DNA of 35,260 bases, taken from the NCBI GenBank assembly GCA_003136475.1, contig PLEQ01000307.1, positions 1 through 35,260 on the forward strand. Direction: 5' to 3'. Below the pieces are notes generated by a model, which saw nothing but the letters and a program-made list of their open reading frames with translations, was not told where the DNA came from and searched no databases. This document shows, piece after piece, positions 885-32,013 of the stretch. Origin of the DNA: Deltaproteobacteria bacterium (GTDB taxonomy: Bacteria > Bdellovibrionota_B > Oligoflexia > Oligoflexales > Bog-1112). The translations under genes and the position numbers were made by a program. How positions within the stretch are numbered: the first letter of the stretch is position 1; every line of letters starts with the position of its first letter.

Positions 885-1133
885 TTAAAACCCATCTGAT
901 TCCGGATAAGCTTCTAACTTTAATTCTTCAATCTCTTCTCGCAATTCCTCAATGGTCTGATTAGCCTCTACCAACTTAACCTTATAGCATTTCTCCATAT
1001 CAAGATAGCCCTTTTTCCACGATTTCGCGGCTAATTCAAAATCCAGAAGATGCTGTTGATATTGAGCCAACTCCTCTTCGAGCTTGGCTACTTGTTTCTG
1101 TAAATCATAGATAAGTTGTTCTGGAGTGATCAT
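885..1133 (-). CDS. Hypothetical coiled-coil protein
   Basis: ATG start with an ATGA overlap on the stop of the upstream gene. The sequence is heptad-like and rich in E, K, L and Q. No motif recognised. Confidence 0.5.
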   Translation of the reverse strand: MITPEQLIYDLQKQVAKLEEELAQYQQHLLDFELAAKSWKKGYLDMEKCYKVKLVEANQTIEELREEIEELKLEAYPESDGF

Positions 1134-2089
1134 TTTAGTGCCGCCTTTACTGCCGCTTTGGTTATCTCTCTCGTTTGACCAAGACTAAGTCTCGCCCAGT
1201 TATCATCTTCTCCCCAAGCGCTTCCGGGCGTCCATTTAATGTTGGCCTTATCCAAGGCTTTCTTCTCAGGTTTACCAAGTTGCAACACACAAAACATTCC
1301 CCTTAATGGAACTTCACTTTGTCCAAATCGACTTAGGAGTTTTTGCATTTGCTGTCTGTTGTCGTCTAGGTATCCTGAAGAACGAGTCTCAAATCGATCC
1401 ATGTCTAGACTCTGCAGAACTTCTTCTGCAATATTCTGTGACACGCTAGATAATCCAATATAATTGGCGGTGACCCAAATGCCTAAACTTTTAGCCAATT
1501 CATCATCGTCGGTGGAAACCCATCCAATTCGTAGTCCCGATAGCCCTAAAGTCTTAGAAAGGCTACCGCACATAATTTTATAGCTAGAGGGAACATGTCC
1601 TCCCGAACTATACGATCCAGTAGCATAAGCTGCATCCCAGATATCGACATTCCCAAAAGGGGCTATTAACCCCTCAGGATTACTTGGACTATCTACTAAC
1701 CTTATAAAGTTTCTCTCGGTACATCCATTTTGGAGATTAGACAGATCCCTCATCTTTTGCCAATCGATATGGTTCATATCCGATAAAGAAATGATTTGAG
1801 GGTATATGGGAAAGTATCGTCTATTAGTGACAACCCAATCAGTCCATGGAGCCTTAAGGGCATACAATGCCGCATGAATGGCCCCCGTAGCGCCGTGTGA
1901 AATAAAAAGGTGCTTAGGTCTATGCCCAGATTGTCTTTTAGCTAGATCCTTGCATTGTTCGATTAAATGGGGATAACCAAGATGCGGAGTGTACCCCATA
2001 GACTCTAGAAGTTTTGGGGCCATGCCAAATTTATGGCCTAGGGTCTCAATAAGAGCCTGGCGAACTATTACGGGATCTCCCCACGCCAT
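1130..2089 (-). CDS. PLP-dependent aminotransferase, class I/II fold
   Basis: Motifs SPSNPEG, IWDAAYA and SLSKTLGLSGLRIGW (the PLP-lysine motif SxSKxxGxxGxRxG). The track start at 2158 overlaps the HNH gene by 59 nt, whereas the ATG at 2089 (MAWGDP...) lies just after the HNH stop. Confidence 0.75.
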   Translation of the reverse strand: MAWGDPVIVRQALIETLGHKFGMAPKLLESMGYTPHLGYPHLIEQCKDLAKRQSGHRPKHLFISHGATGAIHAALYALKAPWTDWVVTNRRYFPIYPQIISLSDMNHIDWQKMRDLSNLQNGCTERNFIRLVDSPSNPEGLIAPFGNVDIWDAAYATGSYSSGGHVPSSYKIMCGSLSKTLGLSGLRIGWVSTDDDELAKSLGIWVTANYIGLSSVSQNIAEEVLQSLDMDRFETRSSGYLDDNRQQMQKLLSRFGQSEVPLRGMFCVLQLGKPEKKALDKANIKWTPGSAWGEDDNWARLSLGQTREITKAAVKAALK

Positions 2090-2099
2090 ATTAAATTCT

Positions 2100-2612
2100 T
2101 TATTCGAAATTGAGTTTGCCACAAAATTCTCCATAGATTTCTTTAGCCGCTTTATCAAAAGATTTTGCTGCCAATTCTGCTGTAGGAAAACGTCCTAAAA
2201 TTATTCTTTTCCCGTGAGAGTCTCTTATGTAGGCATACCAAGAATTAATTTTTAAACCTTTTTGTTTATGAATTCCTCTAAATCCAGAAGTGTTATCGGA
2301 TCTTTTTTTATTTTGATTAGTCACGTTTTGTCTATCTGTAACCGTTCTGAGATTACGTCGTCTACAATCTAGCGTGTTTCCATTTATGTGATCCACCTTA
2401 ATTTGTGAGTTTTCCATATTTAATAAAAATCTATGTAAAAATACTCTCTTTTTTAGCTCTTTTCCATTGTCCATTCCTATATGGAAATCATGTCTGGCAT
2501 AAAATCTGCCATTTTTACTATCATGAGCATACCATTTTAATTGGGATACTTTTTCAAAATCTTCATCATCAACTAATGCCACTTTTCCTTGAGTAAGAAG
2601 TATTTCTTTCAT
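2100..2612 (-). CDS. HNH homing endonuclease with a C-terminal AP2 DNA-binding domain (copy 1)
   Basis: VDHINGNTLDCRRRNLR (HNH) is followed by GFRGIHKQ..WYAYI..GKRIILGRFPTAELAAKSFDKAAKEIYGEF (AP2-like). The junction with the upstream gene is a TAATG overlap. Confidence 0.85.
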   Translation of the reverse strand: MKEILLTQGKVALVDDEDFEKVSQLKWYAHDSKNGRFYARHDFHIGMDNGKELKKRVFLHRFLLNMENSQIKVDHINGNTLDCRRRNLRTVTDRQNVTNQNKKRSDNTSGFRGIHKQKGLKINSWYAYIRDSHGKRIILGRFPTAELAAKSFDKAAKEIYGEFCGKLNFE

Positions 2613-2884
2613 TAGGGTACGTCGCCATTCTCTTTAATCTTCTGTTCTTCATATGGGACAGCGGTCCTACGATAGAGTTCTAGTTTAGCGCCTTCTAACG
2701 CTCCAATAGCATCGTTTATATTTTGGTAGTTTAGACCTTTACGAAGCAAGTAATTCTTTATAATTACCGTGAAGGTAAAGTTGAGATCTCCAGCACAATC
2801 TATTTCTTCAATATCTACGACGTTGTCTCCTGGGATTTCGCAGGGTCTAATATTTTCTCTTCGTTCTTGTTTGATATATGGCAT
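2612..2884 (-). CDS. Small conserved phage protein. Possibly N4 gp49/Sf6 gp66 family, which I recall as the family containing the Acb2 cyclic-oligonucleotide sponge. Function unverified.
   Basis: 90 aa with GDLNFTFT..NY...GLNYQNINDAIGALEGAKLELYRRTAVPYEEQKIKENGDV. The family assignment rests on my memory of the motif. A GAGGT SD lies 9 nt upstream, and the start is 1 nt after the CYTH stop. Confidence 0.45.
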   Translation of the reverse strand: MPYIKQERRENIRPCEIPGDNVVDIEEIDCAGDLNFTFTVIIKNYLLRKGLNYQNINDAIGALEGAKLELYRRTAVPYEEQKIKENGDVP

Positions 2885-2885
2885 A

Positions 2886-3482
2886 TTATTTTACCTCTTT
2901 TACGTACATTTCAAATAAGCTTAATTTCTTACGTTTCTGCGGCGTAATTCCTAATGGTGCAAGAAGCTTCTCATATTTTTGAACCACTTCCCAGGCTTGT
3001 TCCTGGGTCATTTCTAGGCTCTCATCGGCTTCAATTTCAACGAATGTAGCGTATTTGCCATCTTCGCCTTTGACGGTATAATAGACCAGATCGGCATCAT
3101 CGTAAAAGTAAATATCGCAGCTTTTCTGGATGGAGAAGTTTTTCTTATACCCAAGACCTTCACAGAAAGCATGAATTAGAAATGGGTCATTTTTATCAAC
3201 CCTAAGATTTACTTCAGTACGGACCCAATTATTTTTATCCATACTCTTTTTCTTAAAAGTAAGTTCAGAACGATTTTCCTCATCCCCACCAAGCCTGTTT
3301 TCGCTTGGCATTCTATAACGTAGAAATTCATTTTCGGCACGAAGATAGTAAACATCAGTAGATTCAACGTAAAGAAAACTCTTAGGTCCTAGGCTTTTAG
3401 CCAAGTCTTTGAATTTAATACGATCAATGTCATCAGCATTGTATTTTGCTTCTACTTCGAGGTATTTCTTTTCTTCGCTCAT
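2886..3482 (-). CDS. CYTH-domain (triphosphate tunnel metalloenzyme / class IV adenylate cyclase-like) protein
   Basis: N-terminal ExExK signature (LEVEAKY), then FLRYRM, SELTFKKK, RTEVNLRV and a C-terminal FVEIEAD. This is the alternating charged beta-strand pattern of CYTH tunnels. Confidence 0.75.
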   Translation of the reverse strand: MSEEKKYLEVEAKYNADDIDRIKFKDLAKSLGPKSFLYVESTDVYYLRAENEFLRYRMPSENRLGGDEENRSELTFKKKSMDKNNWVRTEVNLRVDKNDPFLIHAFCEGLGYKKNFSIQKSCDIYFYDDADLVYYTVKGEDGKYATFVEIEADESLEMTQEQAWEVVQKYEKLLAPLGITPQKRKKLSLFEMYVKEVK

Positions 3483-3934
3483 TTAAACGTCCATTCTAGC
3501 CCTATACTACCATTAGTTTGGGATAGGGTCAAGTGGGTACTAACTGAATGCACTTTAGGACCGTCTAAACTTAAGGACCTATCTTTTACAACTTTAGTTA
3601 TGCCCAAAAGAGTGCCTACCTGACCATCTGTAATGCCTACAGAATGCATAACATTTCTAGCAGTTCCTTCAGCTTTTGACGTAATTTTGTCTTGAAAAGC
3701 TTGTCCACCAGATTGAATGTAAGCGGCTTTGCTCGCCTGGGATATGGCGTTCGAGTATGTTGGATTAATAGAGTTATCGTATTGAAATACTGATAGAACC
3801 ATCAAGATTCCTAGAGTAGATCCACTCAGAGGCTCTTGGAATGTAGGAGTATGGGTATGAACCAAAAATGAGCTATTATCGGATATACCGATAGTAGAAT
3901 TTAGCGGAATTTGGGGTCCTACAAAATCATTCAC
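3479..3934 (-). CDS. Hypothetical protein with one hydrophobic segment
   Basis: GTG start with a GTGAATGA overlap on the upstream stop and an AAGGA SD about 9 nt upstream. Contains GSTLGILMVLSVF. No motif recognised. Confidence 0.5.
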   Translation of the reverse strand: MNDFVGPQIPLNSTIGISDNSSFLVHTHTPTFQEPLSGSTLGILMVLSVFQYDNSINPTYSNAISQASKAAYIQSGGQAFQDKITSKAEGTARNVMHSVGITDGQVGTLLGITKVVKDRSLSLDGPKVHSVSTHLTLSQTNGSIGLEWTFK

Positions 3935-4427
3935 TTTCTTTTTCCTTGCTCATTAGATAACGACACATTCCCATTTGACGATGAAGGGTCATGATTTTAT
4001 TATAGTCCTCAGTCCTACTAGTGCGAGCACCGTCTGCACATTCAGCTTCTATCCAAAAATCGTCACCGGTCAAGCCATATCTTTGGCCTAGAGATTCATA
4101 TTCTTTTTTAAAATATTTATAAGCCTCTTGATTGGTTTGAAATCGAGCTTTAGTTTCCATAAATTTCTCCATAAAAGACTGTGGCTCTTCCTTTGGGGTA
4201 GCCAATTTAAGAATATTTCTGGACATGGTTTCTTGACTAAAAATTAAATTTTTCAATTCATTCTTAAAAGGTTCTGGAATCTTATTGGCACAATCGTGTA
4301 GGTCTTTTAAATTTAGGGCATGAGCATTAACAATATAGAGCCCTGATTGAGTGAGACCAAGATCTTCCATGGCTATTAGGTTCTTTATACGACCAGCTAT
4401 GGCATAAATATCATCACTTCTGGACAT
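3927..4427 (-). CDS. Hypothetical protein
   Basis: 166-aa ORF with an ATG start that overlaps the end of the 58-aa ORF by 14 nt. Confidence 0.55.
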   Translation of the reverse strand: MSRSDDIYAIAGRIKNLIAMEDLGLTQSGLYIVNAHALNLKDLHDCANKIPEPFKNELKNLIFSQETMSRNILKLATPKEEPQSFMEKFMETKARFQTNQEAYKYFKKEYESLGQRYGLTGDDFWIEAECADGARTSRTEDYNKIMTLHRQMGMCRYLMSKEKESE

Positions 4428-4590
4428 TTGTTTTTACTAACTTTTTCTTTTTATCATAAAACTTTAGGATAATCGTCTTGTCCTTATTTAACTTGACCGT
4501 ATAGGAATCGATCTTGGTGATATCCATTATGTCTTCAAGTTCCTTGAGCGGAAATCTACCCTTGTTATCCAATTTAATGATTTTAGACAT
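4414..4590 (-). CDS. Unlisted 58-aa ORF, SpoVT/AbrB/MraZ-like
   Basis: I translated it by hand as MSKIIKLDNKGRFPLKELEDIMDITKIDSYTVKLNKDKTIILKFYDKKKKLVKTNVQK*. The LDxKGRFPLP-like motif is present. Its ATG overlaps the upstream stop (ATGTCTAA) and its own stop overlaps the next start. It falls below the track length cutoff. Confidence 0.5.
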   Translation of the reverse strand: MSKIIKLDNKGRFPLKELEDIMDITKIDSYTVKLNKDKTIILKFYDKKKKLVKTNVQK

Positions 4591-5110
4591 TTGCTTTCCT
4601 ATATTTTTTAGTTAACTCTTTGTGCTTCTTTCGACGCTCTTTGTATTTTGGATAAGATCCGGTTTCATAGAAAACCTCATATTGCCATACATCGTATTCT
4701 TTGGCAAGATCCAATTTCCACATTGGAAACTTCATATTAGTTTCATGATAAATCTCATTCCAATACTTTGTTCCGCCGATCTCATGATTTAGCAAAACTT
4801 TTCTTTGCTTTTTCTTACTATCCTGTTCTAATTCTTCGGCCTTGTCTACGTGGTCAATTGCATTTTCTAAAGTTGGATCAATTTCCCTATTCTTTTCCCA
4901 TAGATTATGTTTGGCATGACCAATTTCATGGATCAAAGTTAATACGGTATCAATTTTAGATTTATTTCTCTGTTTATTAATCATTATACCGGTATTGTCT
5001 AAATACCAGGCTGCGGAATCATCTTCTTCTTTAGAAGTACAAAAAGTGACCGTGAGTCCAAGCCCTTTCACATAACTGATTAGTCTGCTAATTTCTTCGT
5101 CTCTTACCAA
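4583..5110 (-). CDS. HExxH zinc-metallopeptidase-like protein (ImmA/IrrE-like)
   Basis: Motif TLIHEIGHAKHNLW. TTG start with a GGAG SD 5-6 nt upstream, overlapping the HNH-AP2 stop by 7 nt. Confidence 0.55.
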   Translation of the reverse strand: MVRDEEISRLISYVKGLGLTVTFCTSKEEDDSAAWYLDNTGIMINKQRNKSKIDTVLTLIHEIGHAKHNLWEKNREIDPTLENAIDHVDKAEELEQDSKKKQRKVLLNHEIGGTKYWNEIYHETNMKFPMWKLDLAKEYDVWQYEVFYETGSYPKYKERRKKHKELTKKYRKANV

Positions 5111-5622
5111 GAGGTCTCCCGTTTAAATTTCCCAAAGTGTTCTTTAGCGGCCCTTTCGTATGCGTTAATGGCGTCTTCCTTAGAGGGAAATGTGCCCAAC
5201 CAAATTCTCTTGTTATTGATTTGTATTTGAGCGGCCCATTTTTTACTAGATTTATGCCAAGTAATACCCTTGATTCCAGTTTTGCTATTTTTTCTATCAG
5301 ATTTGATGTTCCTAGCATTCTCTCCAGGAGAACAGGTTCTTAAATTCTCTTTTGTATTGTCTAGAACATCCCCATTTTTATGGTCTATAAGTATTTTAGG
5401 ATCTGTTATGTTTAAAACAAATCTGTGTAATTTAGTCCAAGGATCTGAAGTTTTTAATCCCGTTATACGATTTTCTTTTGTATTATAGGTAACACACCAC
5501 CGATATCGACTAATTTTATACCAATCTGATTCGTCTACTTTAGCAACATAGATCTTATTTCTATGATAAACATAAAAATAAACTATACTATTTTTTATTT
5601 CTACAATTTCATTGGATTTCAT
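5104..5622 (-). CDS. HNH homing endonuclease with a C-terminal AP2 domain (copy 2)
   Basis: IDHKNGDVLDNTKENLR (HNH) plus GIKGITWHKSSKKWAAQIQINNKRIWLGTFPSKEDAINAYERAAKEHFGKF (AP2). ATGA overlap with the upstream stop. Confidence 0.85.
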   Translation of the reverse strand: MKSNEIVEIKNSIVYFYVYHRNKIYVAKVDESDWYKISRYRWCVTYNTKENRITGLKTSDPWTKLHRFVLNITDPKILIDHKNGDVLDNTKENLRTCSPGENARNIKSDRKNSKTGIKGITWHKSSKKWAAQIQINNKRIWLGTFPSKEDAINAYERAAKEHFGKFKRETSW

Positions 5623-6599
5623 ATCAATCTAATAAATTCAACACACTCTTGAAATGATTTAATGTCTATTCCACCACCATAAGTAATTCCAGACCTAAGT
5701 GCTCCTTGCCACGTTTCTAACATTTGTACAACGGGTTTTCCAACGTCTAGATAACGAACCCCACCTTCTGCGCATGTACCCGACTTTAAACCCCCTTTCC
5801 ATTTATTTTGGACGTATTCAGAAGCCATACCGGCATAAATTTTTTTAGTGGCTATAGCATCTTCATAAAAAAAATCTGCCGCACTCTCAGGACAGGCAGC
5901 AAAAATACTTCCAGCCATGGCACTATTAGCCCCTGCAGCGATACTTTTTACTAAATCTGCAGGTTCTCTAAGGGCCCCATCACTAATAATAGGTAACCCC
6001 ATTTTTTTGGATAATTCTTTAAATTTTAGAACAGCACTGAACTGTTTTTCAGTACATCCAGCTGTATTCTTGGTTTCGCAGGCGAATCCTTGGGCAATAC
6101 CCACCTTTACAGCATCTGCAAAGTCTTCCACTTCATACATCATGTCTGGATTTACCGTATTTCCCACAACCATTTTGATGTGTGGAAAATCTGTTTTTAG
6201 TTTTTTGCCAAGATCAATTACTGTATCACTATAACCGTGGGCAATATCGATCACAATCACGTTAGCCCCATTCTTGATTAGGGTTTGGGCTAAATTGTAT
6301 TGATCATTTCCCACGCCAATAGAAACTGGTACCCATTGACAATTTTTAGTAACTTTTAGGACTTCAGATACATAATCTGCTTCCTGAAGGGCTCTGTGTA
6401 AAAAGCCAAATGCGCCAAGTTCTGATAATTTTATATAAAAATCTGCGTTTATGACTGTGGACATATTAGCAGCAATAAGTGGAATCTGCACTTTAATGCC
6501 ACGTATGATTTCTGATTTGGTATCAGCATCTAGTCTCGATGAGCAACGATTTTTCTTTTGCTTAATGGATATTGATTCAAAACCTAGAGATTGTTCCAT
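5619..6599 (-). CDS. IMPDH/GMP reductase-family enzyme without a CBS pair (GMP reductase-like)
   Basis: Motifs IPLIAANMSTV, VIVIDIAHGYS, VVGNTVNP and GLPIISDGALREPADLVKSIAAGANSAMAGSIFA. At 326 aa there is no room for a CBS insert. Confidence 0.75.
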   Translation of the reverse strand: MEQSLGFESISIKQKKNRCSSRLDADTKSEIIRGIKVQIPLIAANMSTVINADFYIKLSELGAFGFLHRALQEADYVSEVLKVTKNCQWVPVSIGVGNDQYNLAQTLIKNGANVIVIDIAHGYSDTVIDLGKKLKTDFPHIKMVVGNTVNPDMMYEVEDFADAVKVGIAQGFACETKNTAGCTEKQFSAVLKFKELSKKMGLPIISDGALREPADLVKSIAAGANSAMAGSIFAACPESAADFFYEDAIATKKIYAGMASEYVQNKWKGGLKSGTCAEGGVRYLDVGKPVVQMLETWQGALRSGITYGGGIDIKSFQECVEFIRLI

Positions 6600-6961
6600 T
6601 ACAATAATACCTCTTCTTTGTAAGAACCGTAGTCCGTATAATATACGCGTTTAATGCCAACATCTCTCAAAAGCTTATTACACCAAACGCATGGCTTGCT
6701 CATCGCGACATCACCACTTTTATTCTCCCTGTAAAGATATATAGTGCAATCTTTAAGAGACCCTTCTTCGACTCCCAAAATACAATCCAGTTCGCAATGG
6801 ATATGCTGGAATGGGTGGTTGCTTTTGGCATGAGTTTTGTATTTATTGAATCCCAGTGATACTACTTTAGATTTATTAACAATAACCCCACCAATTTTGT
6901 GGTACGGATGCGTACTTTTTTTAGATATTTTTCTTGCTAGATCAAAGAATTTCATCTTCAT
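6599..6961 (-). CDS. dCMP/cytidine deaminase, zinc-binding
   Basis: HCELDCI (H-x-E) and PCVWCNKLL (PCxxC). Its stop overlaps the reductase ATG (TAATG). Confidence 0.8.
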   Translation of the reverse strand: MKMKFFDLARKISKKSTHPYHKIGGVIVNKSKVVSLGFNKYKTHAKSNHPFQHIHCELDCILGVEEGSLKDCTIYLYRENKSGDVAMSKPCVWCNKLLRDVGIKRVYYTDYGSYKEEVLL

Positions 6962-6967
6962 CTAGTG

Positions 6968-6996
6968 ACTATATATGAATAATAGGGATAGGTCAA
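6968..6996 (-). promoter_or_regulatory. Sigma70-like promoter directly abutting the deaminase ATG
   Basis: The minus strand reads TTGACC (6996-6991), 17 nt, TATAGT (6973-6968), cactag, then ATG (6961). There is no SD. Confidence 0.35.
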
Positions 6997-7865
6997 CTCT
7001 TATTTTTTTCATTGGCGACGTATTTAAATGCACTTCCAACAGTAATTAACCATTCTTTTTCTTTAAAATCGTGCTCTTCTAAGAATTTAGGGCTTAATAG
7101 TTCGATTGTCTGATCTTCAGTAAATCCGGCCAAGGCAAAATCTACAGCCAGTGCAAACCAGGTTTGATTCCGACCGTTCCTAAATGTTATGCCACTACTC
7201 ATCATTCGTTTGGCCCATCCTGAAAGCCTGCTATAATCGGCTTCTCCATTATAGGGCTTTCTTTGTTTAGGCATAGGTCTTAATTGGGGCCATTGATTTA
7301 GCCACTTATAGAAGTCTTCTAATTTGATTCTTCCTTTTAGGCTTATGAGTCTCTGCTTCTTTCCTGGTTCTCGATATGCTCCAGGAATTCTAACCGAACG
7401 ACTAGGGTTTTTACAGTTTTGATCGCAAAACGTTAATATTTTAAGTGCCCAAAGATACAGATGGCGGTAGGTCTTTTCGTCTGGCAATTCTTTGTCTTCC
7501 AGTACAGTTACAGCATGTACTGACTTATTACCGGAAAATACTTGAGCAGAAATTGGAAGGCCAGTTTTTTTGAAAGAATTTAGCTGTTCTTGAATTGAAC
7601 CAGTATCGCATTCCCATAAGAACGTCCGAAACTTAGACACATTAGAGTCTTTTCTGAATCCTTCGATAGGATTTATAGACACCAAAATGAGTTCTGAAGA
7701 ATCACATTGTGTTACAGAAAAATCATTTGTGGATAGTAGTGAAATCTGTCCGGATAGAGCTTTTTCTAAAGGAATAGAATGGTATGCAAATTGGTTATTG
7801 CTTACAGAGATATTCTCTCCAGGATCGAAGAGAAGTTTCAATAATGATTCACCGGTAGAATCCAT
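6993..7865 (-). CDS. Archaeo-eukaryotic primase (prim-pol)-like protein with a PriCT-like C-terminus
   Basis: FLWECD (acidic motif), SGNKSVHA (sGxxxH motif), SRSVRIPGAYR and C-terminal RNQTWFALAVDFALAGFTEDQTIELL. The track start at 7922 is a TTG inside the upstream gene, whereas the ATG at 7865 follows that gene's stop. Confidence 0.45.
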   Translation of the reverse strand: MDSTGESLLKLLFDPGENISVSNNQFAYHSIPLEKALSGQISLLSTNDFSVTQCDSSELILVSINPIEGFRKDSNVSKFRTFLWECDTGSIQEQLNSFKKTGLPISAQVFSGNKSVHAVTVLEDKELPDEKTYRHLYLWALKILTFCDQNCKNPSRSVRIPGAYREPGKKQRLISLKGRIKLEDFYKWLNQWPQLRPMPKQRKPYNGEADYSRLSGWAKRMMSSGITFRNGRNQTWFALAVDFALAGFTEDQTIELLSPKFLEEHDFKEKEWLITVGSAFKYVANEKNKS

Positions 7866-7869
7866 ATGT

Positions 7870-8280
7870 CTATAGTTTGGTCCAAAGCTGGGCGGTCCAC
7901 TGCCATTCCTTAGGCTCAACAACTTTTCCGTTATATACGTAATAGTGTGTTAGCGGAAGAGTATTTTTCTCCAACATTTGACGTATCCTTGGATGGTCAT
8001 TTAATTTTGCTATATAGGCTAAAGCCAGTTCATTTTCTGTAGGATGGGTCCTTTTTAGGGTAGCCTTTTTACCCAATTCCTTGCATTCCCATCCTGGGAG
8101 ACGCCTTAGCTCCTCAAGACCCGTCATTAGCCAGTACCAGAAGCCTTCTACGGTCCTAAAACGACCATAATCAGGGTGATGAAAGGGCGTATCGGCAAAG
8201 TTCGACAGAAGTCGTCCTAGAGGCGTCTTACCCTTGGAATAAACGTTGATATGGTCTATTCCATCCATTTCAGGATTCAT
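7870..8280 (-). CDS. Conserved phage protein, possibly NADAR/YbiA-like
   Basis: INVYSKGKTPLGRLLSNFADTPFHHPDYGRFRTVEGFWYWL resembles the NADAR core (..Y....LSNF....F...G..F.S.E). The similarity is weak and judged by eye only. Confidence 0.35.
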   Translation of the reverse strand: MNPEMDGIDHINVYSKGKTPLGRLLSNFADTPFHHPDYGRFRTVEGFWYWLMTGLEELRRLPGWECKELGKKATLKRTHPTENELALAYIAKLNDHPRIRQMLEKNTLPLTHYYVYNGKVVEPKEWQWTAQLWTKL

Positions 8281-8587: not shown

Positions 8588-8888
8588 TTTCAATTCTCCT
8601 GGGTTGTACAGATTCAATTATTAAAAGTGCGTTTTCTAGACTATCTTCGTCTGGATTACTTATTACCTTCCTTAAGGCTATCTCTAATTTATCGGCCTTG
8701 CAACTATAAAAATCTTTAGTTTTGCCTAGGTACTCATTGCTGTCAGTTAAGTATTTGACATAATTCTCTAAACTCTCATTATCCTCTAATAAAGATTCTA
8801 ATGCTTTGACCGGGACCGATACACTTTGGAACATACTTGTTCTATCTAGTTCCGAATATGACTTGTCTAGCCAACCTTCATATTTCAT
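8577..8888 (-). CDS. Hypothetical acidic protein
   Basis: ATG start with an ATGA overlap on the helicase stop. Confidence 0.5.
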   Translation of the reverse strand: MKYEGWLDKSYSELDRTSMFQSVSVPVKALESLLEDNESLENYVKYLTDSNEYLGKTKDFYSCKADKLEIALRKVISNPDEDSLENALLIIESVQPRRIENGS

Positions 8889-10027
8889 TCGTTTTCCTTT
8901 TTCTTGTCTTTATGGATTCCTACTTTTTTGTCATTTTCTTCTTCCAAATTCTTGATTACTCTATCCCGTATACTTTCTTGGAAAGCGGCTGAATATGGCA
9001 CGAACTTTCCCCTATCGAATCCTGTATAAATAAATTCCCCTACGGCTTCATTAAATCGACTCTTCCACACAAACCATTTGCTTCTGTACAGCTTTCGTTC
9101 TGGGATAAGCTCACAGATAAAAGTGGCTTTATCGCAAATTGTTTTACTGCCCTTTAACCTAACATTGAAAGGGGTGCTATCATCTTCATCTACACGCTTT
9201 TTCATTTGGGCCATAACTACTATGGCTCCGGGATATTGAAGTTTCATTAAATCCAAGAAACTAGAGAGTTTTGCTTGAACTTCCCAATCTAATAGTTTCG
9301 GGTTTATTTTTGAACGTTTAACGTTTTGGTAATAGTCAATAATAACTGTGTCATAAGTATGACCGTCTCTCAATAGATTATTGAAAATCGTTTCAATACC
9401 CTCTATTGTAGTAGTCCATCCAGATACTCCTTCATAAGTATCTCCAATAATGGTTAAACGACCCTCTTCAGCCCATATGGGAATATAGTTATTGAAGGTC
9501 TCTCTTTGCTCGTCAGTAAACTTGTTGTGATTGATATAGGCTAAGCCCGTATATAAACAGGTAATTCGATTGTAGAAGTCTTCAGGAGCTTCTTCGTTGG
9601 ATAGAACTAAAACTCTTCCCTTTTTGCCAGTAGCCGGATTAATTCTATTAATGGTGTCGTAGATTATGTTTGCTACGGTTGTGGATTTTCCGTCGCCTGT
9701 ATCTCCAGCTATTAGAATTAAATTTTTTCGAAAGTAAGGTACCAACTTATCAAATTCCTCGTTTATAAAAAGCATGGAATTTTTAGCGGATCTCATGTAC
9801 TCGTCATTTGATGCTACCATTGCTTGAATGGTCTCTTGGCTCATCGGTCCAAAATTGATTTTTTTTGCCTTCTCAAGTTCGGTATTGTTTTGAACTAGTT
9901 CCTTAAGATCTCTATCAACCCTATGTTCTTTAAGGAATAAGTCCTTCTCTTGGAATTCTTCTTTCCTTCTCTGAAGATCTTTGTCTTTTTCAATCTCGGC
10001 TTCGATTTTTTCTAGAATGTCGCTCAT
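8885..10027 (-). CDS. Replicative DNA helicase, DnaB C-terminal/RecA-fold type
   Basis: Walker A LILIAGDTGDGKSTT, Walker B VIIDYYQ and a later MAQMKKR segment. At 380 aa it lacks a long DnaB N-terminal domain. Confidence 0.7.
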   Translation of the reverse strand: MSDILEKIEAEIEKDKDLQRRKEEFQEKDLFLKEHRVDRDLKELVQNNTELEKAKKINFGPMSQETIQAMVASNDEYMRSAKNSMLFINEEFDKLVPYFRKNLILIAGDTGDGKSTTVANIIYDTINRINPATGKKGRVLVLSNEEAPEDFYNRITCLYTGLAYINHNKFTDEQRETFNNYIPIWAEEGRLTIIGDTYEGVSGWTTTIEGIETIFNNLLRDGHTYDTVIIDYYQNVKRSKINPKLLDWEVQAKLSSFLDLMKLQYPGAIVVMAQMKKRVDEDDSTPFNVRLKGSKTICDKATFICELIPERKLYRSKWFVWKSRFNEAVGEFIYTGFDRGKFVPYSAAFQESIRDRVIKNLEEENDKKVGIHKDKKKENE

Positions 10028-12369: not shown

Positions 12370-12667
12370 ATTGGTCCTTGAAGTGGTCGAGAGTGACGTA
12401 CTTGCACCGTCTTATAGCTTCCTTGTCCTAGAGGCGCGACCTCTAGCCATTACTATATATGGTAACTCTCGAATTTGTTGGCGGGTGAGGCGCCACCCTC
12501 ACTCTGGCGTACTAACGGAATCTATATTTCAGAGTTATACCCTAAGTAGTTCCGAATTTCCCCAGCCTTACTAGATAGACACGTCTATCGTGGTCGTTCA
12601 GGATTTCACTGACAGCGTTATGACTCCAATATTGTCACCACAGGCTTCTCGTGCTGCCGCCAAACTT
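12370..12667. other. 298-nt ORF-free, GC-enriched, hairpin-dense intergenic island. Could be a structured RNA, an origin or a regulatory region. Identity unknown.
   Basis: This is the longest noncoding gap in the window. Hairpins are ctagagg/cctctag (12428-12446), gtgagg/cctcac (12485-12502) with a competing gggtg/caccc pairing, and gataga/tctatc (12574-12589). An AT core, attactatatatggtaa, sits between them. Confidence 0.4.
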
Positions 12668-29811: not shown

Positions 29812-30645
29812 TTAAGAACTCGATGGTACTAATTTAACACCCATATTAGCAGCCATTCCCGTATACAACATCTCCAATTGTTGGGGGTTCGGATGCGGGA
29901 TCAGATTGGCAGGAGTAACTGCACGCTTTCTAGCGGAGCGTTCTTCAGCTGCCTTATTATATGTAGCTAACTCTTCCGGAGTCATTTGGTCAATGGGCTT
30001 AACCAATGCCGACTCCTCGTCTTTATTGATAGCTGATTTAGCCTGAAGTTTTTGTACAGGCTTTGATTCAGCTTTCTTTGATGTGGGAGTTGGGGTAGCT
30101 TTAGGCTTATTTATCGGAGTAGGGGTGGAATTAGCTCGTAAGTTACCGCTAATGGCCGTAATCCCATCCTTCTTTGGTTGAATCGGTGCTTGAACTACAA
30201 GAGTTGGAGCTTCTTCGGTTTTTCCACCAGTAACTTTAGAGGCAATCATCTTCAGTGCCGTAACTTCCAAATCGTTAAATGGAGAAGAAATAACAGGGGT
30301 CTGTAAAACTTGTTCTTGCCTAATCCCAAGCATTACTTCCATACGTTCTCGAACAAATTTACGAATTTCTCGTTGAACATTTCGGATAGCCTTGGGATCC
30401 GCATCCGTATCTCCGAAAATGTCATTGGCCAAGACCATCTGATAAAGACGCCCTTGTTCCAAGCGAAGGTTTGCGTCGAACATCAATTCTGATGTGTCTT
30501 GTTCTTCTTCCTCGAAGATATCCTGTGGAGTTTCGCCAGTAATTTCAGAAACTGCTTGTTCATCAAGAACCATTTCTGACTGAGGTGAATGTCCTGGTTG
30601 TTCCCAGGGTTTTGGTGGTGCTTTATTTTTTTCCCAGAAACTCAT
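29812..30645 (-). CDS. Hypothetical protein with a T/P/K-rich central region
   Basis: ATGA overlap with the RuvC-like stop. No motif recognised. Confidence 0.55.
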   Translation of the reverse strand: MSFWEKNKAPPKPWEQPGHSPQSEMVLDEQAVSEITGETPQDIFEEEEQDTSELMFDANLRLEQGRLYQMVLANDIFGDTDADPKAIRNVQREIRKFVRERMEVMLGIRQEQVLQTPVISSPFNDLEVTALKMIASKVTGGKTEEAPTLVVQAPIQPKKDGITAISGNLRANSTPTPINKPKATPTPTSKKAESKPVQKLQAKSAINKDEESALVKPIDQMTPEELATYNKAAEERSARKRAVTPANLIPHPNPQQLEMLYTGMAANMGVKLVPSSS

Positions 30646-31307
30646 ACTTTTCCCTCAAATAAATCTGCCATATCAATCTCTTCGCCTCTGGCAGGACCTT
30701 TCATGCGCCTAAAATGGTAACAAGATAAAAGTCCAAGCCCATCTGCTAAATCTTCATCTTTGCGTTTAAGAGGTTCTTTTAATTGACCTTCAAAAATCTC
30801 ACTGACCCTACGAATATTGACATGTTTTCTGCCAATAAGTCCCGTTCTTTTACCATTTATATCATATGCGACTATGGTCTTATTTTTCTTTTTATACTCT
30901 CTAACTTCCTTATTTCTCTTTTTTTCTTCCTTAGTCATTTGGCATCCAATTTCACGACGCCATTGTTCTGTCATTAAATACACACACTTAATCTTACTGG
31001 ACGTAATATATTGAGCCAATAAAAATTGGGTCCATTCCAGAATCTTCTGGCTCATAGCATTTTTGCTACCCTTACTAGTTTCTTCTATGACTAAAACTTC
31101 GGGCGAATATTTTTCAATAAGTCTAATAATTTCCGTATAACACTTATATGCCCACATGACATAGTTTGATGGATATTCACCACTAGGTTCATGAATTTGA
31201 GTAACAACCCCGTAATCAACCAATTGAATACCGGAATCTGAACTAGTAGCAAAGGCCCATCCCGTCTTAGTAGAAATATCTAAACTTAGGACCTTTTCGA
31301 TATTCAC
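30642..31307 (-). CDS. RuvC-like Holliday junction resolvase
   Basis: VLSLDISTKTGWAF (Asp), VLVIEETS (Glu), EDLADGLGLL (Asp pair). GTG start forming GTGA with the upstream stop. Confidence 0.65.
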   Translation of the reverse strand: MNIEKVLSLDISTKTGWAFATSSDSGIQLVDYGVVTQIHEPSGEYPSNYVMWAYKCYTEIIRLIEKYSPEVLVIEETSKGSKNAMSQKILEWTQFLLAQYITSSKIKCVYLMTEQWRREIGCQMTKEEKKRNKEVREYKKKNKTIVAYDINGKRTGLIGRKHVNIRRVSEIFEGQLKEPLKRKDEDLADGLGLLSCYHFRRMKGPARGEEIDMADLFEGKV

Positions 31308-31693
31308 TTAGATGCCTTAAGCCACTTTTCACTTATTGAAAATTGAGGAGCATTAGTACTTGGATGAATATTGTTGCTATCATCAATCCAAGTTTGACTA
31401 TCGAACTCAATCATATACTTAAAAGACTTATCGTACCAATCCACACTTAAAATGGTTGCCTTGGATCCAGCCTTAAATAAGTGCCTATATGACATCCAAC
31501 CCCAAGAATCTTGGGCATTTACGGGATATGTAGCAGCCATTTTTACTTTATCTCCAACTTTAAACTTGGCGAATGAAAATAGGCCCCCTACACATTCCTG
31601 TACTCGTTGCAGTTCCCACTCGGAGGGAAGTACTGCCTTACTCAGGGCTTCCGTGCCCGTTTTCCATTTTTGTAAGTATTCCAAACTAGACAT
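31304..31693 (-). CDS. Hypothetical protein
   Basis: TAATG junction upstream. Confidence 0.5.
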   Translation of the reverse strand: MSSLEYLQKWKTGTEALSKAVLPSEWELQRVQECVGGLFSFAKFKVGDKVKMAATYPVNAQDSWGWMSYRHLFKAGSKATILSVDWYDKSFKYMIEFDSQTWIDDSNNIHPSTNAPQFSISEKWLKASK

Positions 31694-32013
31694 TAAGCGG
31701 CACCCTTCTCCTGACGAAGCTTAATAGAAACTGCAATAATAGCATTCTGACGTTTTTTAGTTGCACGAAAATCAGAACTATATTCCTTAGCAGCTTCCTT
31801 AGCCTTGAGATAAGGACTCTTGTCCCCATTAGGTTGATCAGCTTCTAGAGCTTCCTTACTTTCCTGAATAGCTTGTGAAGCCTGGGCTATTTGCTTATTT
31901 AGCTCTTCTACTGAAAGAGTCTCCAAATTTGCCAATACGTCGCTTCCGTCTTCACCGATCTTTTGAGCTAACTGTTGCAATTCGCTGAGAGGCTCTTTAC
32001 GTGGACGACCCAT
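31693..32013 (-). CDS. Small helical protein with an N-terminal AT-hook-like MGRPRK
   Basis: MGRPRKEP... then a helical region rich in E, K, A and Q. Confidence 0.45.
   Translation of the reverse strand: MGRPRKEPLSELQQLAQKIGEDGSDVLANLETLSVEELNKQIAQASQAIQESKEALEADQPNGDKSPYLKAKEAAKEYSSDFRATKKRQNAIIAVSIKLRQEKGAA

Follow-up and report, generated by a model that had tools for sequence, protein, structure and literature searches.

The CYTH gene and the DUF6899 gene described here are neighbours on contig PLEQ01000307.1 (assembly GCA_003136475.1), a sequence of 35,260 nucleotides filed under Deltaproteobacteria bacterium. The whole of this stretch was analyzed and is called the window; we take it to be a piece of the genome, roughly 165 kb long, of an uncultured phage. 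Our best explanation, which we hold as a whole with moderate confidence, is that the two genes are co-transcribed in this phage but do not form a dedicated two-gene system. The CYTH protein is most likely a triphosphate-cleaving enzyme, and the 90-aa DUF6899 protein behaves as movable cargo that has settled beside it. A preliminary description made from the sequence alone had taken the 90-aa protein for a possible Acb2-family sponge and the two genes for a candidate pair interfering with nucleotide signals. The two genes are the following.

2886-3482, minus strand: CYTH gene, 198 aa, ATG start.
2612-2884, minus strand: DUF6899 gene, 90 aa, ATG start.

Both open reading frames (ORFs) of the preliminary description, 1 nt apart, were confirmed in the ORF list and in the sequence, and all the motifs quoted for them were present. 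Their profile scores and homologue numbers are far beyond chance, so both ORFs are real. At the junction (2885-2898, minus strand), the CYTH stop codon TAA (2888-2886) is followed by a single spacer base (2885) and the DUF6899 start codon (ATG, 2884-2882), and a Shine-Dalgarno-like AGAGG element (2898-2894; GAGG core 2897-2894) lies 9 nt 5' of this ATG. A promoter and terminator scan detected no terminator-like signal for the minus strand between the genes, and promoter-like sites were not more frequent than in shuffled sequence. The minus strand is the transcribed strand throughout the region. This layout is consistent with co-transcription and coupled translation.

The assignment of the 198-aa protein to the CYTH superfamily was confirmed by Pfam, structure prediction, and Foldseek. 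It matched PF01928 with 31.7 bits (gathering score, 23.2), residues 9-166 aligning with profile positions 3-159 of 179, and the search returned 261 homologues. The motifs E9-V-E11-A-K13, R55-Y-R57, T75-F-K77, R88-T-E90, and E149-I-E151 were those quoted in the preliminary description, and their motif residues are all invariant in an alignment of 41 sequences except T75, which is kept in at least 90% of them. The invariant positions include E9, E11, K13, R55, R57, K77, K79, E90, E149, and E151. In terms of the known superfamily motifs, the protein has ExExK (9-13), DxY (43-45), FxRxR (53-57), KxK (77-79), ExE (149-151), and the plug-helix tyrosine Y170. An AlphaFold2 (AF2) model built from 41 homologues, with a mean predicted local distance difference test (pLDDT) score of 90.1, shows the eight-stranded beta-barrel tunnel with a C-terminal plug helix. 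A Foldseek search of the PDB with this model gave 75 hits at E<=1e-3, headed by 1yem and 2dc4 (Pyrococcus CYTH) and by SaTTM (7nsf).

The 90-aa protein is a member of PF21840 (DUF6899), which it matched with 86.6 bits (gathering score, 27) over residues 1-89 and the full profile (1-85 of 85). The motif GDLNF...GALEGAKLELYRR..PYE..K..NGDV, on which the preliminary description had based its tentative assignment to the N4 gp49/Sf6 gp66 family, is present and is the conserved core of DUF6899. The family is large, with 762 homologues in an indexed search and 6,302 clusters at 50% identity in an exhaustive one, and it is nearly confined to phages (478 IMG/VR loci against 5 contigs of metagenome-assembled genomes among 185,579 species genomes). 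Its members nearly always stand alone at 80-110 aa. Invariant or nearly invariant residues are M1-P2-Y3-I4-K5, R9, G32, N35, Y45, Y53, N57, D58, G61, E64, K67, E69, R72, Y78, E79, K82, and N86-G87-D88. The AF2 model (pLDDT 88.8) has helices at residues 6-12, 31-49, and 53-86, so that the predicted fold is a short N-terminal helix followed by a long antiparallel helical hairpin. Tandem DUF6899-DUF6899 fusions of 149-185 aa were found (P0241, P0246, P0270, P0301, and P0335), in which the second repeat lacks the N-terminal MPYIK segment, and they suggest a dimeric functional unit. Fusions to other domains were not seen among the best 150 of the 6,302 representative hits, of which 10 long members were scanned; these had only tandem duplications and low-complexity tails. 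The 90-aa protein had no hits in PHROG, PADLOC, NCBIfam, or the PDB, and we found no mention of DUF6899 or PF21840 in the literature searched. DUF6899 is among the larger uncharacterised phage-only families.

The co-expressed pair proposed in the preliminary description was not borne out by co-occurrence. We compared IMG/VR loci, each with 10 kb on either side: the 80 DUF6899 loci most similar to the query and 21 CYTH loci. A CYTH homologue was near DUF6899 in 1 of the 80, and DUF6899 was near CYTH in 1 of the 21; both cases are the identical contig. The gene-cluster maps show instead that CYTH resides in a conserved block composed of a helicase (cluster K0), a 309-aa protein (K3), an optional GMP-reductase-like gene, K5, CYTH, an aminotransferase (K9), K8, and tail-fibre genes on the opposite strand. 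The run of genes from the helicase to the pyridoxal phosphate (PLP)-dependent aminotransferase and K8 would mark the end of the replication module. Between CYTH and K9, 0 to 5 small genes from many unrelated clusters are inserted, and this interval is a hypervariable slot in which DUF6899 and HNH endonucleases are cargo. DUF6899 occupies it in the window and in the related loci L001/L002, L034/L090, L113, and L114, and HNH endonucleases occupy it in the window and in L100/L101.

A second placement of DUF6899, which we call slot B (the CYTH-K9 interval being slot A), was found in the sibling contigs L003, L111, and L112 (160,794, 73,889, and 47,185 bp). Here DUF6899 lies upstream of the gene for DNA polymerase III (Pol III) alpha, between a 100-aa and a 211-aa gene, and CYTH is carried elsewhere on the same contigs, which were recognized by their identical lengths. 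The slot-B flanks are recognizable in the window at 31693-32013 and 30642-31307, each being about 55% identical to the flanks of DUF6899 in L112 (tblastn), and the position between them is filled by another gene.

31304-31693, minus strand: unrelated 129-aa ORF without a Pfam hit, at the slot-B position held by DUF6899 in siblings.

A DUF6899 profile hidden Markov model run against all six frames of the window found no second copy, at slot B or anywhere else, and a second CYTH copy was likewise not found in the window. Quick neighbour-joining trees put all genomes that have the pair side by side into a single CYTH sub-clade, where they are interspersed with genomes lacking it. The slot-A DUF6899 sequences are polyphyletic, and the copy of the window groups with slot-B copies, although the protein is short and this tree is weak evidence. 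Because of the two placements, the variable interval, and the scattered tree, DUF6899 behaves as movable cargo. It has at least two placements, and the one beside CYTH is a juxtaposition specific to this lineage, in a hypervariable slot.

The genes that most often surround DUF6899 indicate where its function may lie. They were clustered in 69 loci and identified by Pfam. PF18909 (DUF5664, 'dGTP_diPhyd_N') follows DUF6899 directly in 24 loci, mostly with an overlap of 1-4 nt, and the DUF5664 partners are as little as 32% identical across loci. An NDT-like gene (PF05014) directly precedes DUF6899 in 19 loci, 16 of the 69 have both the NDT-like and the DUF5664 gene, and DUF4406 is nearby in 14. 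At least one of PF18909, NDT, and DUF4406 occurs within 6 genes of DUF6899 in 50 of the 69. A cultured phage, Roseobacter phage CRP-7, encodes its DUF6899 homologue (gp25) between the genes for DNA polymerase and glutaredoxin. The stand-alone DUF5664 of Arthrobacter phage Wayne converts dATP, dUTP, and dGTP to deoxynucleoside monophosphates (dNMPs), and phage NDT-like enzymes act on dNMPs (PMC12884076). We infer from this company, because in most other phages DUF6899 is wedged between NDT-like and DUF5664 genes, that it would have an accessory role in the management of the phage (deoxy)nucleoside triphosphate ((d)NTP) pool or in replication modules, which is the working model with the best support. 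When compared with the gene sets described in PMC12884076 (NDT-like/DmtZ, DUF5664, and DUF550/MazZ), DUF6899 is habitually found between the NDT-like and DUF5664 members, and in the window it is beside another triphosphate hydrolase. It is homologous to none of them: hhalign gave a probability of 0.2% each for DUF5664, NDT-like, DUF4406, and one uncharacterised neighbour family. The window phage has none of those genes, and no DUF5664, NDT, or DUF4406 gene was found in the window. The association with NDT-like and DUF5664 genes makes the function of DUF6899 directly testable.

The same neighbourhoods could be read as a partnership, in which DUF6899 is a regulatory, specificity, or nucleotide-binding subunit of triphosphate-cleaving enzymes that pairs with DUF5664 in most cases and with CYTH here, so that the adjacency is meaningful without being universal. 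The overlap with the DUF5664 start in 24 loci, maintained with partners of such low identity, would fit this, as would the placement of DUF6899 1-7 nt after a CYTH hydrolase in the window and four other genomes and the fact that the window has no DUF5664, NDT, or DUF4406 gene of its own. The order is reversed, however: DUF6899 precedes DUF5664 but follows CYTH. The slot-B genomes keep DUF6899 far from CYTH and flanked by unrelated uncharacterised genes, CRP-7 has it beside polymerase and glutaredoxin genes, no DUF6899-enzyme fusion was found, and 19 of the 69 loci lack all of these families within 6 genes. We regard such a partnership as doubtful. A broader form of it is quite unlikely in our view: DUF6899 would be a new and very large family (6,300 or more clusters at 50% identity) of small, oligomeric, nucleotide-binding phage proteins acting with triphosphate-cleaving enzymes, DUF5664 mostly and CYTH here. 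It might determine the choice of (d)NTPs for destruction, or it might sequester a nucleotide that its partner makes or uses up, perhaps one that serves as an immune signal. If DUF6899 were such a nucleotide-binding partner, its adjacency to CYTH would mean that this lineage had re-paired the parts of a general two-component logic of nucleotide interference.

Several observations weigh against our explanation. Within one CYTH sub-clade, DUF6899 follows CYTH immediately and closely spaced in five distinct genomes, and in L113 DUF6899 is translationally coupled on both sides; a local functional link between CYTH and DUF6899 is compatible with these arrangements. Both here and in other phages, DUF6899 adjoins an enzyme that cleaves a substrate of the nucleoside triphosphate type, and this recurrence could be more than coincidence. 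The 80 DUF6899 loci, on which the association with NDT-like and DUF5664 genes is based, are not phylogenetically independent. Finally, Foldseek with a monomer is weak on a 90-aa helical hairpin, which leaves formal room for a distant structural kinship to a sponge.

The sponge proposal of the preliminary description concerned two families that must be kept apart. PF13876 (Phage_gp49_66), the N4 gp49/Sf6 gp66 family named there as the family of Acb2, is the Acb4 family founded by SPO1 Acb4. Acb2 (T4 Vs.4, PDB 7UQ2) belongs to PF24729 (Acb2_Tad1_hairpin), which the control Vs.4 matched at 7.1e-20. Making this distinction corrects a mix-up that could propagate. With hmmscan, none of 41 DUF6899 members matched PF24729 or PF13876 at E<=10, and all 41 matched only PF21840. 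A search of PDB sequences with the DUF6899 profile gave no match at E<=10, and hhalign of the profile against T4 Vs.4 gave a probability of 0.06%. Foldseek of the DUF6899 model against 350,542 PDB chains, a search of low sensitivity for a 90-aa hairpin, returned no Acb2 chain at E<=10 (best hit, E 2.9); the sole sponge in the list was Tad1 at E 9.5 with a probability of 0.03, which is noise. Against BFVD, only another uncharacterised phage protein was found. The ORF at 2612-2884 therefore matched neither PF13876 nor the Acb2 structures, and with hmmscan, the PDB profile search, hhalign, and Foldseek (PDB and BFVD) all negative, membership of the 90-aa protein in the Acb2 or Acb4 family was rejected. 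The DUF6899 family is unrelated to both.

The two families resemble DUF6899 in general features. Acb2 (T4 Vs.4 and PaMx33 Acb2) is also a phage protein of about 90 aa, and its protomer, a short N-terminal helix with two long antiparallel helices, has a topology grossly like that of the DUF6899 model. There is no sequence, profile, or Foldseek similarity between them, the conserved motifs are different, and the DUF6899 neighbourhood is one of replication and nucleotide metabolism. Acb4 (SPO1 Acb4) is likewise a small phage protein, but DUF6899 has no match to its profile, and fusions with the Tad2, Acb4, or Sequestin families were not seen.

An Acb2-like or other immune-signal sponge, expressed together with a CYTH enzyme that would synthesize or degrade a signalling nucleotide so that the two form an anti-defence pair, would still draw on some of these data. 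DUF6899 is short, phage-restricted, and predicted to be helical, with invariant Tyr, Lys, and Arg residues; the tandem fusions hint at a homo-oligomer; and the gene is translationally coupled to CYTH in the window. Known sponges share these traits of size, phage restriction, helical fold, oligomeric state, and invariant residues (summarized in 10.1101/2025.07.12.664507). The profile, hhalign, and structure searches speak against such an anti-defence pair, as does the rarity of co-occurrence. The 10 long DUF6899 members had no fusion to another domain, whereas sponge families are often fused to one another, and DUF6899 strings are absent from the supplements of the sponge screen (both 10.1101/2025.07.12.664507). 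Moreover, the usual neighbours are deoxynucleoside triphosphate (dNTP) and dNMP enzymes in replication modules, not anti-defence islands. A sponge together with a signal-modifying enzyme would be a new anti-defence architecture, but the evidence does not support it, and we consider it highly improbable.

The chemistry of the CYTH protein was evaluated by the three sequence rules that set class IV adenylate cyclases (AC-IV) apart from hydrolases (PMC8233210), with the motif register checked against 1yem. First, the HF motif of the cyclases (HFxxxxExExK) is missing at the place 5-6 residues upstream of ExExK; the N-terminus, MSEEKKYLEVEAK, which is variable within the family, has E-E at positions 3-4. 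Second, the small neutral residue that replaces the first Arg of xxRxR in cyclases was not found, and R55 is invariant. Third, the beta-8 ExA of cyclases was not found, and E149-I-E151 is intact with both Glu residues invariant. TIGR00318 (cyaB equivalog) was the sole NCBIfam match, with 39.6 bits, which is under the cutoff of 57.95.

A class IV (CyaB-type) adenylate or nucleotidyl cyclase, by which the phage would use cyclic AMP or another cyclic nucleoside monophosphate to reprogram its host, is what the homologues are named for: JGI labels them 'adenylate cyclase class IV' or 'predicted adenylyl cyclase CyaB'. That TIGR00318 is the only NCBIfam hit, that YpAC-IV structures are among the Foldseek hits, and that DxY, F147, and Y170 are features common to SaTTM and YpCyaB could also be cited for it. 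CyaB (YpAC-IV, PDB 2FJT/3N0Y; TIGR00318) is in fact of the same superfamily and the same parental cluster of the sequence similarity network (SSN) as the SaTTM-type enzymes, with DxY and the aromatic pocket residues shared. The phage protein differs from it in having no HF motif, in keeping the gate-keeper Arg and the second Glu of ExE, and in falling under the TIGR00318 cutoff. Its structure is matched more closely by SaTTM-type enzymes: in the Foldseek list, Pyrococcus CYTH (E about 1e-9) and SaTTM rank ahead of the Yersinia AC-IV. SaTTM has been shown by experiment to be a triphosphatase and produces no cyclic nucleotide, and 'CyaB' labels on many CYTH proteins are known to be wrong (PMC8233210). 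The JGI names are probably wrong as well, because the family fails all three cyclase rules and scores under the TIGR00318 cutoff. We consider a cyclase very unlikely, and the sequence features make a two-metal triphosphate tunnel metalloenzyme (TTM) acting as a triphosphohydrolase the most likely identity of this protein. The preliminary description had allowed for an enzyme that either makes or destroys a triphosphate or cyclic nucleotide; the cleavage of a triphosphate is retained as a prediction, and the cyclase side is disfavoured by the three missing signatures.

The closest known relatives are SaTTM and the Pyrococcus CYTH proteins (SSN cluster 3 in PMC8233210; PDB 7NS8-7NSF, 1YEM, 2DC4, and 2EEN). 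They have the same tunnel fold as the phage protein (Foldseek E 1e-9 to 1e-7; target-normalised TM-score 0.70-0.80), are its best PDB sequence match, and share ExExK, DxY, RxR, KxK, ExE, the beta-8 F-x-E, and the plug-helix Tyr. They are nevertheless only 18-24% identical to it, and at the second position ahead of the first Arg, where the phage protein has F53, their residue is small or aliphatic. F53 is part of F53-L-R55-Y-R57 and is Phe in at least 90% of sequences, not the Trp or Tyr of the W/YxRxR motif of thiamine triphosphatases (ThTPases), the register being inferred from the motif definition and from LLRIR of 1yem. In ThTPases, the Trp or Tyr of this motif stacks on the organic moiety of the substrate (PMC8233210). 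ThTPase structures rank only 40-47 in the Foldseek list. The substrate would be inorganic triphosphate or an organic triphosphate such as an NTP or dNTP; the organic class is considered because the near-invariant aromatic F53 sits at the position that determines ThTPase specificity.

The phage protein further differs from SaTTM and Pyrococcus CYTH in an extra basic tail, PLGITPQKRKKLSLFEMY, of roughly 25 residues outside the Pfam CYTH match, and in being phage-encoded and unusually conserved, with its activity a prediction. It is 57-80% identical to its homologues in most related contigs and about 50% identical in the two most divergent loci. Within the tail, residues 174-193 form a family-specific, near-invariant segment, LAPLGITPQKRKKLSLFEMY. 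In the tail as a whole (residues 174-198; 2886-2960, minus strand), the stretch from L174 to E191 holds 12 residues that are invariant in 41 homologues, with L177 and K183 nearly so. The basic patch may serve in partner binding, nucleic-acid binding, or extra phosphate binding. The clade had no tblastn match among GenBank phages (50,697 records). These proteins are a phage-specific, strongly conserved clade of predicted CYTH hydrolases that is routinely mis-annotated as adenylate cyclase, and their substrate, once identified, could reveal a new phage route to reshaping nucleotide or polyphosphate pools.

The more regular company of CYTH consists of an aminotransferase and other genes of the block. 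In the window, they are arranged around the two genes as follows.

885-1133, minus strand: coiled-coil protein K8, 82 aa, found in 14 loci and following the aminotransferase in every locus that has the two.
1130-2158, minus strand: PLP-dependent fold-type I enzyme, a TAA1/alliinase-like aminotransferase (K9); PF00155 82.5 bits, PF04864 (Alliinase_C) 62.7 bits.
2100-2612, minus strand: HNH-AP2 homing endonuclease, 170 aa; PF13392 (HNH_3), PF00847 (AP2), phrog_99 E 2.8e-32.
3479-3934, minus strand: 151-aa ORF without a family hit, whose stop overlaps the CYTH start.
3927-4427, minus strand: K7 protein, 166 aa, in 14 loci, without a family hit; a CYTH companion, upstream or downstream.
4583-5110, minus strand: K5 protein, 175 aa, with a HEIGH motif, in 16 loci; a conserved upstream neighbour of CYTH.

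The aminotransferase has the lysine motif SLSK (SxSK), and its best PDB matches are 3bwn (TAA1, a plant tryptophan aminotransferase) and alliinases. Its translation probably begins at the ATG near position 2089 (MAWGDP...), immediately behind the stop of the HNH gene. By tblastn, 15 of the 21 IMG/VR CYTH loci have an aminotransferase match downstream of CYTH, and the window, L113, and L114 have one too. L001 and the CYTH loci that diverge most (L097, L103, and L104) are without it, and tblastn found no match in GenBank phages. The link between CYTH and the aminotransferase may be functional or may reflect shared ancestry only. If it is functional, CYTH, the TAA1/alliinase-like PLP enzyme, K7, K8, and sometimes DUF6899 would form a phage biosynthetic or modification pathway, in which, for example, a phosphorylated precursor is activated or de-activated and then transaminated. 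The recurrence of the aminotransferase after CYTH agrees with this, as does the much stronger conservation of CYTH (57-78% identity) than of its neighbours (aminotransferase, 28-65%), and the window has GMP-reductase-like and dCMP deaminase genes 2.1-3.5 kb upstream of CYTH. All these genomes are, however, of a single phage lineage with conserved synteny, L001, L097, L103, and L104 have no aminotransferase, and up to five unrelated genes can stand between the two. No pathway is known to join a TTM to a class I/II aminotransferase, no exhaustive search for one having been made. We judge such a pathway unlikely.

The HNH gene at 2100-2612 is a mobile insert between DUF6899 and the aminotransferase, and its ATG overlaps the DUF6899 stop by 1 nt. 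L113 has no HNH gene here, and its DUF6899 stop overlaps the aminotransferase start. A paralogous endonuclease with HNH_3 and AP2 domains (5104-5622, minus strand, 172 aa) lies between the GMP-reductase-like gene and K5, and this HNH-AP2 family (cluster K19) occurs at other positions in related genomes. Homologues of the 151-aa ORF were found only in L001, L113, and L114, all of which have DUF6899 directly after CYTH. K5 had only sub-threshold Pfam matches (Peptidase_M78 and Reprolysin_3), and K8 closes the conserved block, beyond which the tail-fibre genes run in the opposite direction.

Further upstream, the GMP-reductase/IMPDH-family protein (5619-6599, minus strand, 326 aa) has no CBS insert and matches PF00478 with 200 bits, far under all NCBIfam equivalog cutoffs. 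Only some of the CYTH genomes carry a counterpart of this gene, with identities of 28-31%, and the dCMP/cytidine deaminase gene (6599-6961, minus strand) immediately precedes it in transcription order. Together they could serve purine-pool remodelling or a non-canonical base. The 309-aa K3 (6993-7922, minus strand; 20 related loci) has no Pfam hit; by eye, its motifs ECD, SGNKSVH, and RIPG are reminiscent of archaeo-eukaryotic primases, and the DnaB-like helicase gene (8885-10027) lies shortly ahead of it in transcription order.

The window, with a G+C content of about 37%, encodes a DnaE-type Pol III alpha (1198 aa), the DnaB-like helicase, a RecA-like protein, an SbcC-like fragment, an RNase T-like exonuclease, the two HNH-AP2 endonucleases, the GMP-reductase/IMPDH-like protein, and the dCMP deaminase. 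Because of this gene set, it is taken to be part of a phage replication and nucleotide-metabolism module. Megablast found no close relatives among the 50,697 GenBank phage records; the nearest cultured phage by Pol III alpha is Myxococcus phage Mx1 (169.6 kb), at 34% identity, and related metagenomic contigs are up to 150-177 kb long. The Pol III alpha of the window has no intein; in L112 (1-184 and 16991-20324), precomputed Pfam hits place inteins with LAGLIDADG endonuclease domains in the helicase and Pol III alpha genes.

An Rfam scan of the whole window gave nothing at gathering thresholds. ARAGORN reported a tRNA-Ala(CGC) at 12384-12471 (minus strand), which at 88 nt is long for a tRNA-Ala and had no Rfam tRNA match, so it is doubtful. 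Positions 1-800 are G+C-rich (48%, compared with about 37% elsewhere) and contain two plus-strand ORFs, 82-633 and 643-777, with Gly-rich repeats ending in '...VVFIAHYQ' and '...YIVVTEYYQ'. Similar modules are repeated in the tail-fibre-like proteins of cluster K16 from related loci, among them the 801-aa protein in L087; in the window, a stop divides the tail-fibre-like frame into the two ORFs. The long Pro-rich minus-strand ORF at 48-521 is probably a shadow of that frame.

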